From the NCBI GenBank assembly GCA_963746345.1, contig CAVVAN010000004.1:582063-646062 (forward strand): a DNA stretch of 64,000 nucleotides, given 5' to 3'. The notes under the pieces were generated by a model. The model was given only the letters and a program-made list of their open reading frames with translations, was not told the DNA's origin and ran no database searches. Position numbers and translations under genes: made by a program. Of the stretch, positions 58,134 to 59,474 are shown one piece after another. Every line of letters begins with the position of its first letter. Position 1 is the first letter of the stretch. This DNA is from an uncultured Verrucomicrobiae bacterium (GTDB taxonomy: Bacteria; Verrucomicrobiota; Verrucomicrobiia; Limisphaerales; UBA11358).

Positions 58134-58322
58134 ATGCCGATTATAGATTCAATAGGAAAAACTTTATTTCCGCGACACAATCGGAGTGAACGCAGGCAAA
58201 AAGTTAAAGTGCTCCTTGTTGCCGTGCTGGTTGCCTTCATTGTGATTGCTCTCTTGGTTGTGGTCATGGTTGTTTTGATTGGTTCAGTCCATATTATTAA
58301 GCTCGAAGACTTGCTGCAATAA
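58134..58322 (+). CDS. small single-pass membrane protein
   Basis: 62 aa from the ATG at 58134. Basic stretch then 25-aa hydrophobic helix. Coding status is uncertain. Confidence 0.35.
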   Translation: MPIIDSIGKTLFPRHNRSERRQKVKVLLVAVLVAFIVIALLVVVMVVLIGSVHIIKLEDLLQ

Positions 58323-58356
58323 GTTTTCCCCGATTCATTCGTTTTCCGCAATTCCT

Positions 58357-58509
58357 CGGGAGTATGTAGATAACGCAAATTGGAGATGTCTGCAAAATGG
58401 TTTGTCTTTGAAATCGGGCAATCGTGTTGATTGATGCGCCGGCAAAAGGGACAATCAGTTAAAGCCAGTTGCCGCTTTTGACCTGATTTGCGTTATCTAC
58501 ATACTCCCG
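58357..58509. mobile_element. 153-bp MITE-like element with perfect 24-bp terminal inverted repeats and an 8-bp target-site duplication
   Basis: TIR-L 58357-58380 cgggagtatgtagataacgcaaat is the exact reverse complement of TIR-R 58486-58509. It is flanked by the direct repeat caattcct at 58349-58356 and 58510-58517. No ORF inside. Confidence 0.85.
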
Positions 58510-58578
58510 CAATTCCTTTTGCTTGGACAGCATTTGTCCAACCCTACCTGTCAGAATGTCGCGCAAGAAAGGTTCATT

Positions 58579-58800
58579 ATGACGACAACAAATGCGACAG
58601 ACAGACAACTGGAACTTGGCTTCAACGGCATCAAACCGCGCGCGCTGGCGGCGCGACGCGAAGGCCGCATCGCCCGCGCCAACTGGTGGTTTTCAAAAAT
58701 GCGCGAAGCCGTGGCGAGCGCGATGGATTGGGAAACCGCCGGTCAACCGCGCCCAGAGCAAATCTGGATGCCCGGCGCGAATCGCGAAGTGAAGGTTTGA
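58579..58800 (+). CDS. small arginine-rich hypothetical protein
   Basis: 73 aa from the ATG at 58579, preceded by aaagg. ..RQLELGFNG...RREGRIARANWWFSKMREAV...RPEQIW.. Confidence 0.4.
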   Translation: MTTTNATDRQLELGFNGIKPRALAARREGRIARANWWFSKMREAVASAMDWETAGQPRPEQIWMPGANREVKV

Positions 58801-58844
58801 GCTTCCCAAGTCCGCGCGCTTGCGCGGCATCACCGACGCGCCGG

Positions 58845-59474
58845 TTATCCGCCCACAACCGGATAACCGGCGCGCACAAATTCGCGGATGACGGCGAGTT
58901 CAATTTCGCCGTGAATGGTGTGCGCCTTGGGAAATTCGCGCCATTCGACATTGATGCCGGCGGCTTTGAGCAGTGGAATCTGCGTGCGCACTTTTTCGAT
59001 TGGAATAATCGGGTCGCTCGCGCCGTGCGTCATGAGCAATCGTTGTTGCAATGCGACGGGCGAAAGTTCTTTCAGCAATTTCGCCGGTTCAAACACCCAG
59101 CCGCTGATGCCGACGAGTCCGGCAAAGCGATGCGGATAACGCAAGCCGACCTCAATCGCCATCAGGCAGCCTTGCGAAAATCCGCCGAGCGTGGTTTGCT
59201 CGGTCTGGAAATTTTTTCGCGCGCAAATCATCGAGCAGTTCAAAAAGCAATTTCCGGCTGCGCTGAACTCCGGGCGTGATGTCGTTCGGAAATCGAACCA
59301 CGAACAGCCGCCGTAATATTCGTCCGGCGCGTTGACGAATAAATAATTCAGCCACGGCAAATTCATGGCTTCGGGCAACCAGCGGTAGCCTTCGATGCTG
59401 TCGCCCAAACCGTGCAGCATCACCATGAGCCGTGAATTTTTTTCGGCGGCGGGAATCAATTCGCTGTGCAACAT
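58845..59474 (-). CDS. phospholipase/carboxylesterase-family alpha/beta hydrolase (contains a compensated double frameshift)
   Basis: 209-aa ORF. MVMLHGLGD, nucleophile elbow GFSQG, C-terminal ..HG..D..IP. About 25-30 codons at 59212-59290 read better in the -1 frame (PNDITPGVQRSRKLLFELLDDLRAK). Confidence 0.75.
   Translation of the reverse strand: MLHSELIPAAEKNSRLMVMLHGLGDSIEGYRWLPEAMNLPWLNYLFVNAPDEYYGGCSWFDFRTTSRPEFSAAGNCFLNCSMICARKNFQTEQTTLGGFSQGCLMAIEVGLRYPHRFAGLVGISGWVFEPAKLLKELSPVALQQRLLMTHGASDPIIPIEKVRTQIPLLKAAGINVEWREFPKAHTIHGEIELAVIREFVRAGYPVVGG

Follow-up and report, generated by a model that had tools for sequence, protein, structure and literature searches.

The 153-bp sequence at positions 58357-58509 of the window, a 64,000-nt stretch of DNA (G000:C4:582063-646062) from the 2.9-Mb, four-contig assembly of an uncultured Limisphaerales bacterium of the Verrucomicrobiota, is a real and recently moved MITE, a non-autonomous derivative of an IS1595-family insertion sequence (IS), which is its full-length parent and is found at another place in this genome. 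We identified both the MITE and this parent, found the orthologous site empty in relatives, and observed the same fixed geometry across many independent insertions. In our judgment, this identity, together with landmark-directed insertion exactly 6 nt upstream of a host promoter motif, very probably explains the locus. The initial annotation, whose reading of the sequence as a MITE is borne out by the copies, their own duplications, the parent IS and an empty site, overlooked this fixed position beside a promoter/operator motif. The insertion site is not arbitrary.

The element is bounded by a 24-nt left terminal inverted repeat (TIR), CGGGAGTATGTAGATAACGCAAAT (58357-58380, plus strand), which is identical to both ends of the parent IS, and by a right TIR (58486-58509, minus strand) that is its exact reverse complement. 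The two arms are 100% complementary over 24 nt and are separated by 105 nt. They are flanked by the two copies of the 8-bp target-site duplication CAATTCCT, at 58349-58356 and 58510-58517. Both the perfect TIRs and the duplication had been described before, and sequence and repeat finder agree on them. The repeat finder calls the direct repeat as 11 nt, CCGCAATTCCT, because the final three bases of the right arm match by chance the bases preceding the left copy. No match to the 24-nt TIR, at up to three mismatches, was found in 100 shuffles of the window. The interior has no ORF of note, only chance ORFs crossing it, in keeping with the lack of coding capacity first ascribed to the 153 bp. An outward-facing sigma-70-like match, TTGACC-16 nt-CATACT (58478-58505, plus strand), spans part of the interior and the right end; it rests on consensus and is weak, one match having been found where shuffles give 0.4. 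The initial annotation proposed that the element could lend promoter or terminator activity to either adjacent ORF; no terminator-like site was found in the MITE.

G000 carries four copies of the MITE, each with a different 8-bp duplication (CAATTCCT, AAAATGTT, AAAAAATC and ATAAAAAA). Three of them, at C4:640419 (the window copy), C4:777346 and C1:150446, are 100% identical, and the fourth, at C4:131369, shows 96% identity. As for the source of the transposase, it had been stated that the window contains none, which is correct, and that the cognate IS is unknown, which no longer holds, since a 1117-bp IS (G000:C4:949729-950845), with its own 8-bp duplication AAAATTTT, lies ~309 kb away on the same contig. 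The search suggested at the time, for further TIR copies and a full-length IS with identical ends, thus succeeded within G000 itself. The ends of IS and MITE are identical at 24 of 24 nt on both sides, and the perfect IS ends span 24-27 nt. The IS encodes one long ORF of 335-345 aa, the product of which matches the full profile of DDE_Tnp_IS1595 (PF12762, E = 1.2e-32) and, over residues 33-85, that of Zn_ribbon_IS1595 (Zn_Tnp_IS1595, PF12760, E = 2.3e-13), with CPHC..CRAC visible. It also scores over the curated cut-off of the NCBIfam model NF033547, "IS1595 family transposase" (E = 1.1e-45).

Members of the IS1595 family have a single transposase gene, a length of about 0.7-1.2 kb, TIRs and, in all groups except IS1016, an N-terminal Zn-ribbon. 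Published traits of the family include one transposase gene, an N-terminal zinc finger, a DDE_Tnp_IS1595 domain and 8-bp duplications that are often A/T-rich, and ISfinder divides it into the groups ISPna2, ISH4, IS1016, IS1595, ISSod11, ISNwi1 and ISNha5 (PMC8101967). With its catalytic domain, Zn-ribbon, one gene, size of ~1.1 kb, TIRs and 8-bp duplication, the parent IS is an IS1595-family member. It stands apart from annotated members in sequence: the best annotated relatives in a plasmid collection show no more than 37% identity and bear only the label "IS1595 family transposase," and we therefore regard it as an unnamed IS. Judged by its DDE..K spacing and Zn finger, it may be ISNwi1-like. 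Copies of the IS protein at 92-96% identity are present in other metagenome bins of Verrucomicrobiota/Limisphaerales.

MITE and IS share only ~24-28 nt per end and are otherwise unrelated, so we rejected the possibility that the MITE interior is a deletion derivative of the IS. Homologues of the MITE, also 153 bp long, are found elsewhere in the genus, in genomes G068 (89.5% identity) and G053 (86.5%), and the non-autonomous elements of this family have, across genomes, common ends and many different interiors (108-154 bp). Well-known bacterial MITEs include Correia elements, RUP and MITEAba12 (PMC6382973). Like these, the element is short (below ~300 bp), noncoding and multicopy, has the ends of an autonomous IS and a duplication of the same length, differing from copy to copy, and would be mobilized in trans; an empty site is also found. 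Unlike them, it has an interior that does not derive from its IS by deletion, and it shows strongly landmark-directed insertion. One copy, M3 (C1:150446-150598), disrupts a tyrosine-recombinase gene at its 5' end; two further recombinase genes lie alongside (G000:C1:149645-152698), and the locus looks like a recombinase-in-trio element.

The MITE in the window lies, as first described, between a small membrane-protein ORF (58134-58322, plus strand), which is a neighbor and no part of the element, and an Arg-rich ORF of 73 aa (58579-58800, plus strand). The comparison with relatives that had been proposed for this region found the empty site. In G002, the closest relative (92% identity over the region), the corresponding intergenic stretch lacks the MITE, has a single, related target copy, gAATTCCg, and is bordered by the same neighbors, the small membrane-protein ORF upstream and the Arg-rich ORF downstream. 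No TIR copy was found anywhere in the G002 genome. The element is likewise missing from the orthologous site of G019, G022, G011 and G003, and the motif is kept at the empty sites of all five genomes. Identical sequence in three copies and an empty site in the closest relative show that the window MITE arrived recently. Its insertion moved an A/T-rich upstream block 161 bp away from the promoter of the Arg-rich ORF.

These comparisons also bear on the scenario that would have overturned the original reading, namely that the 153 bp are a conserved regulatory hairpin or structured RNA. We considered it as a part of the Arg-rich ORF leader and give it practically no credence. The sequence does have a strong predicted fold (-66.8 kcal/mol, z = -7.6), but this consists solely of the two arms pairing with each other, and the element is absent from the orthologous sites of relatives. 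In addition, the identical copies have different duplications and unrelated surroundings, and Rfam covariance models gave no match to the MITE at E up to 1. The MITE also lies upstream of the promoter and hence outside the leader. These results exclude a conserved structured RNA.

Between the right copy of the duplication and the Arg-rich ORF stands the second component of the locus. A 6-nt spacer, TTTGCT (58518-58523, plus strand), leads to a palindromic 16-nt promoter/operator motif, TGGACAGCnnnTGTCC (58524-58539, plus strand; also written TGGACAGCATTTGTCC), which is a host feature, being present at orthologous empty sites, and the apparent insertion landmark. A -10-like hexamer, CAGAAT (58552-58557, plus strand), follows 12 nt after it, consistent with the architecture of 62 sampled sites, and CCTGyCAGAATG is kept in the orthologues of this promoter. 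The core motif, TGGACAGCNNNTGTCC, is found in 56 of the 61 genomes of the genus, typically in 1-6 copies each, and some of these genomes have no TIR at all; a reversed control pattern had no match in the 61 genomes. At the level of the order, its distribution is patchy (38 of 151 genomes, versus about 7 control hits). The 62 sampled sites have a common layout: an A/T-rich block, 2-3 bases, TGGACAGC-NNN-TGTCC and, at most of them, a TAAAcT-like -10 hexamer 11-12 nt past the motif. An ATG often stands just 6-7 nt beyond this hexamer, which implies leaderless mRNAs. Covariation is seen at the outermost positions of the palindrome (TTGGACA..TGTCCAA versus ATGGACA..TGTCCAT). Since it occurs in 56 of 61 genomes, including TIR-free ones, and has a -10 box at a fixed distance, the motif can be considered a host promoter element on sequence grounds. 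Because of the arrangement of motif and -10 hexamer and the covarying outer bases, it looks like a dimer-binding operator that overlaps the -35/spacer region of the promoter. We found nothing relevant in the literature on this palindrome as a known operator.

The distance between this motif and the inserted elements is fixed. In the window, exactly 6 nt separate the MITE with its duplication from the motif downstream, which corresponds to a motif-to-TIR distance of 14 nt. In G000 as a whole, three of the five insertions (the window MITE, the full IS and the MITE copy with 96% identity) sit exactly 3 nt from the 19-mer GCTTGGACAGCATTTGTCC, and these three are its only copies, at up to one mismatch, in 2.9 Mb. 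Two independent censuses, of the TIR and of the motif, covered the 61 genus genomes and took in the flanks of all TIR hits and of close IS homologues; all genomes are metagenome bins. The TIR is present in 25 of the 61 genomes, and the reversed control gave no hits. When the motif (up to 2 of 13 mismatches) was sought within 60 nt of the 88 TIR ends, it was found at 14 nt in 28 cases, at 13 nt in two and nowhere else. All 30 of these ends have one orientation and stand on one side of the motif, none on the downstream side, and the 28 ends at 14 nt, in which the 6-nt spacing of the window recurs, have 26 distinct flanks.

Adding order-level loci brought the census to 67 elements or solo ends from more than 30 genomes and at least four families of the order. 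One end is in exact register in 31 of the 67, and the side of the motif never changes. This holds for 22 of 35 paired elements (108-2884 bp), for 9 of 32 solo ends, and for 13 of the 22 paired elements with a perfect 8-bp duplication. By chance, exact register is expected at about 2e-6 per element. Three further families of the order, represented by G168, G203 and G035, have insertions in this register as well. Several in-register cases share one orthologous promoter and may have a common ancestry, so that the number of independent events is below 31; still, no fewer than 13 complete elements with perfect duplications are left, and these lie at varied loci. The orientation of the element itself is free, since either end of a full-length IS copy can point toward the motif and the two MITE copies of G000 that are in register are oppositely oriented relative to it. 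In G016, an older resident end is separated from the motif by a full IS, which is flanked on both sides by the same 8 bp, AAGAAATC; the position was thus hit a second time. A 109-bp MITE at locus L140 (DATNHM010000064.1, 2657-2765) has mirrored motifs on both sides, at 14 nt and 13 nt, so that two operators aim at one 8-bp target.

The preference is strong and not exclusive, as 36 of the 67 elements, including the G000 copies M2 and M3, do not stand beside the motif. It follows that a general, A/T-biased insertion pathway also exists. Could this pathway account for the insertions at motifs too, without any active targeting? The element would then prefer A/T-rich 8-mers, promoters would offer them in their A/T-rich upstream block, and harmless insertions would survive. 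The A/T-rich duplications of the off-motif insertions fit such an account, as do the intactness of the promoter after insertion and the composition of 62 empty motif sites, which have an A/T-rich block (74-90% A/T) at -5 to -13. The exact register does not. In the empty sites, the most A/T-rich 8-mer is spread over offsets 2-39, with a mode at 4-5 and only about 8% at offset 6, whereas offset 6 is the one used by 28 of the 30 insertions beside a motif, and the other two use the adjacent one; under a model with A/T content only, this has a log10 P of -28. Some in-register targets are G+C-rich (CGTTGAGA, CCAAAGCG and GGATCGCT), and four of the 13 in-register duplications have just 3-4 A/T bases. 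Moreover, A/T-rich intergenic 8-mers number in the thousands per genome, and yet the ~1-6 motif copies take about half of the insertions. A/T-richness as the sole determinant is therefore rejected quantitatively, and we consider an origin of the pattern without targeting very unlikely.

The IS has a version of the same promoter of its own. In all IS copies, the transposase gene is preceded by GGTT-ACCC-AGCCAATGTCCAACC..GTCATGGAAGAT-N6-ATG, which is the motif promoter type with its left half-site, GGAC, changed to ACCC or GCCC (hereafter half-operator). The start of the transposase, at MNDKKHPE, is probably leaderless. A second IS1595-type IS, which we call IS-B and which has the end GGGCTTGTATATTTWACAAACGCA, is present in 19 copies in G168 (L250-L269) and in one in G010:C51 (L205/L217/L251). 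Directly inside its 24-nt end, IS-B has an intact TGGACAGCnnnTGTCC motif as transposase promoter. Its copies in G168 lie mostly at contig ends, and their outer flanks are unrelated, always end in T, and contain no host motif. We therefore rejected the idea that related IS generally target in this way; landmark-directed insertion is confined to the CGGGAG-ended family. The promoter class itself is common to host stress genes and the transposases of these IS.

The intact motif just inside the IS-B end raises the question of whether the motif beside the window MITE is itself part of the element or carried along with it, in which case the association would be structural and no matter of target choice. 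TIR, 14 nt and motif do recur as a unit in many genomes, and solo ends stand beside the motif with unrelated DNA beyond them. Even so, we find this highly improbable. The 8-bp duplication sits between the TIR end and the motif and is repeated at the far side of the element, and the TIR faces the motif with its tip and not with its inner side. Furthermore, empty orthologous sites retain the motif, it is found in genomes without any TIR, and both the motif variants and the 6+8-nt spacers vary from site to site.

Solo ends are a feature of the census in their own right. In nine genomes, a single 23-24-nt TIR stands in exact register at the promoter orthologous to window positions 58524-58539 (L040 in G016:C5, L087 in G004, L082 in G045, L090 in G050, L091 in G056, L102 in G065, L050 in G023, L225 in G203 and L227 in G035). 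No partner TIR was found within up to 14 kb, at up to seven mismatches, except for a 541-bp element in G054. We therefore rejected the idea that the single TIRs are ends of larger transposons and regard them as true solo ends. The DNA beyond them is unrelated between genomes, and the TIR is better conserved than the adjoining 14 nt. Solo ends could result from repeated hits followed by truncation, or could be an exapted end.

We propose the following mechanism for the landmark-directed insertion of the MITE. Two 24-nt IS ends around 105 nt of unrelated noncoding DNA would be moved in trans by the Zn-ribbon and DDE transposase of the IS, which would make 8-bp staggered cuts in the target. The host palindrome would serve the transposition machinery as a landmark: the motif, or a protein bound there, would be recognized at target capture, and the integration site would be set by distance on one helix face. 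Judging from the positions of the hexamers, the 8-bp target would occupy roughly -54 to -47, in the A/T-rich upstream block, and its center would be ~20 bp, about two helical turns, from that of the palindrome. Core promoter and operator would stay intact after insertion, and in the window this promoter would go on driving the 73-aa Arg-rich ORF. The motif might be read by the transposase itself, for which the half-operator of its own promoter may also be a binding site, or else by RNA polymerase or a regulator of the host. The one-sidedness might reflect recognition or, in part, the loss of promoter-destroying insertions. A bolder version, which we offer as a tentative and rather doubtful possibility, is that a one-gene DDE IS picks its targets via a transcription-factor operator, most provocatively by docking on a bound host regulator or RNA polymerase at a LexA-independent DNA-damage and mobile-element regulon; this would bring the IS and its many MITEs with base-pair accuracy to the upstream border of the promoters, and its own half-operator would avert repression or self-targeting.

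The genes behind the motif suggest what kind of promoter is being used. They encode Y-family polymerases (IMS, 3.8e-40), an SRAP protein, DUF5131, AAA_25, DUF3631 and DUF3892 proteins, a Cas3 and an MmeI-like methylase, together with mobile-element and defense genes. Two small families without a Pfam match are also found there, an 84-aa protein preceding the polymerases and the Arg-rich family of 69-79 aa. Y-family polymerases and SRAP proteins are classic SOS members, and their presence downstream of the motif could mean that the landmark is the LexA SOS box of this lineage and that the IS targets SOS promoters. We consider this unlikely. A search for lexA in 27 genomes did not find it in roughly half of those that are nearly complete, and it is undetectable in many nearly complete genus genomes that bear the motif. 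Where the start of lexA could be read (G004 and G014 in the genus; G029, G030 and G033 in the order), its upstream region has other palindromes (AGTGTCT-AAAT-AGACACT; TACTACTC-ATAC-GAGTAGTA) and no motif, so we rejected the motif as the lexA autoregulatory box. In addition, much of the motif regulon consists of mobile-element and defense genes. The motif class is rather a probable LexA-independent stress regulon, as far as its gene content indicates. The palindromes upstream of lexA differ between genomes of the order (AGTGTCTAAATAGACACT; ATACTACTCATACGAGTAGTAT; TACTGTACATATGAACAGTA; loci L057, L062, L056 and L061), and in several genomes a Y-family polymerase gene directly follows lexA.

On its own, a MITE or an IS1595 member is routine; operator-directed, base-precise target choice by a one-gene IS is unusual. 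Simple IS are generally thought to choose their targets by loose sequence or structural preferences, and base-precise, landmark-directed integration is known mainly from Tn7, CAST and promoter-tethered eukaryotic retroelements. We found no report in the literature of sequence-directed target choice in the IS1595 family. Tn7 inserts at attTn7 via TnsD, at a fixed distance on one side of the recognized sequence, which is left intact; it requires target-selector and adaptor proteins (TnsD/TniQ and TnsC), and its landmark is the end of a single conserved gene. Fixed distance, one side and an intact landmark are what the insertions described here have in common with Tn7 and CAST. They differ in that the IS has no TnsD/TniQ selector or TnsC-like ATPase, its sole ORF being the DDE transposase, in that the landmark is a multicopy promoter/operator, and in that targeting is not exclusive. 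A Tn7-like/CAST variant has been described recently (PMC11837452).

The palindrome-targeting IS and the res-hunters resemble our IS in preferring a short host palindrome or protein-bound site. IS1397 and ISKpn1 (in REP/BIME loops), IS30 and IS231 (at hot-spot palindromes) and the "res-hunter" transposons Tn5053/Tn402 all insert inside the palindrome or res site, whereas the insertions described here spare the palindrome and keep a fixed 6-nt offset from it on one side, and the palindrome is a promoter operator, not a REP. The retroelements Ty3, at Pol III start sites, and Tf1, at Sap1-bound promoters, insert upstream at a position set by a bound factor and spare the gene. Insertion upstream of promoters with the gene spared is thus shared with them, but they use other enzymes in another kingdom, and tethering of the IS is only a hypothesis. 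If the landmark reading is right, the system would be a minimal and tractable one in which to study how a transposase, alone or via a host DNA-binding protein, gauges its distance from a landmark. Landmark targeting would also explain a recurrent "safe harbor" beside promoters in an uncultured soil lineage. The analysis further brings out a previously undescribed class of Limisphaerales promoters/operators, which appears to govern Y-family polymerases, SRAP, mobile-element replication and defense genes, and transposases.

Several further observations concern the motif promoters. A 6-kb stretch of G000 (C3:33748-39030) holds three unoccupied ones: the first is followed by an 85-aa ORF and a Y-family polymerase split into two frames, the second by an SRAP gene with an MCGRY start that is out of frame with the remainder, and the third by an 83-aa paralogue, behind which lies a gene for a type I methylase. 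A split is also seen in the Y-family polymerase adjoining the IS, at C4:950908. In G052:C45 (L162), a Cas3 gene (HD + DEAD helicase) begins 25 nt past a motif promoter, an arrangement that suggests coregulation of CRISPR interference with the motif regulon in that genome. G057 (L206-L216) has 64 copies of the motif, in the form of an extended palindrome, GACCCTGGACAGCnnnTGTCCAGGGTC, followed by CTAAAyT, N7 and ATGAAAGTG; they precede diverged GC-rich, short, low-complexity ORFs and then repeats of the TTTAACMATTTAAC type. We rejected an IS-borne motif as the reason for these 64 copies, as they are a bare promoter module with no IS. G127 and G190, of another family, have 20-23 copies of the core motif.

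Lastly, the Arg-rich ORF downstream of the window MITE belongs to a conserved family (QLELGF..R..R..WWF..MR..PEQIW.PG), of which we found 28 distinct sequences (L018-L028 and L148-L204). An alignment of 21 homologues has 14 invariant columns, among them QLELG and R..R..WWF..MR..V..A. The ORF has no match in Pfam. We considered its product as a candidate for the regulator that binds the motif; the AF2 model, a single helix (residues 24-53, pLDDT 65), shows no DNA-binding fold and speaks neither for nor against such a role. Between the Arg-rich ORF and a convergent carboxylesterase gene lies a perfect 15-bp inverted repeat, CGCGCCGGTTATCCG / CGGATAACCGGCGCG, with an 8-nt loop (58837-58874), which from its position and structure is probably a bidirectional terminator; the sole Rfam hit there, to Ms1, was dismissed as noise (20.9 bits versus a threshold of 162). 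Sometimes the Arg-rich ORF is duplicated in tandem, and both copies then have a motif promoter of their own (L148).
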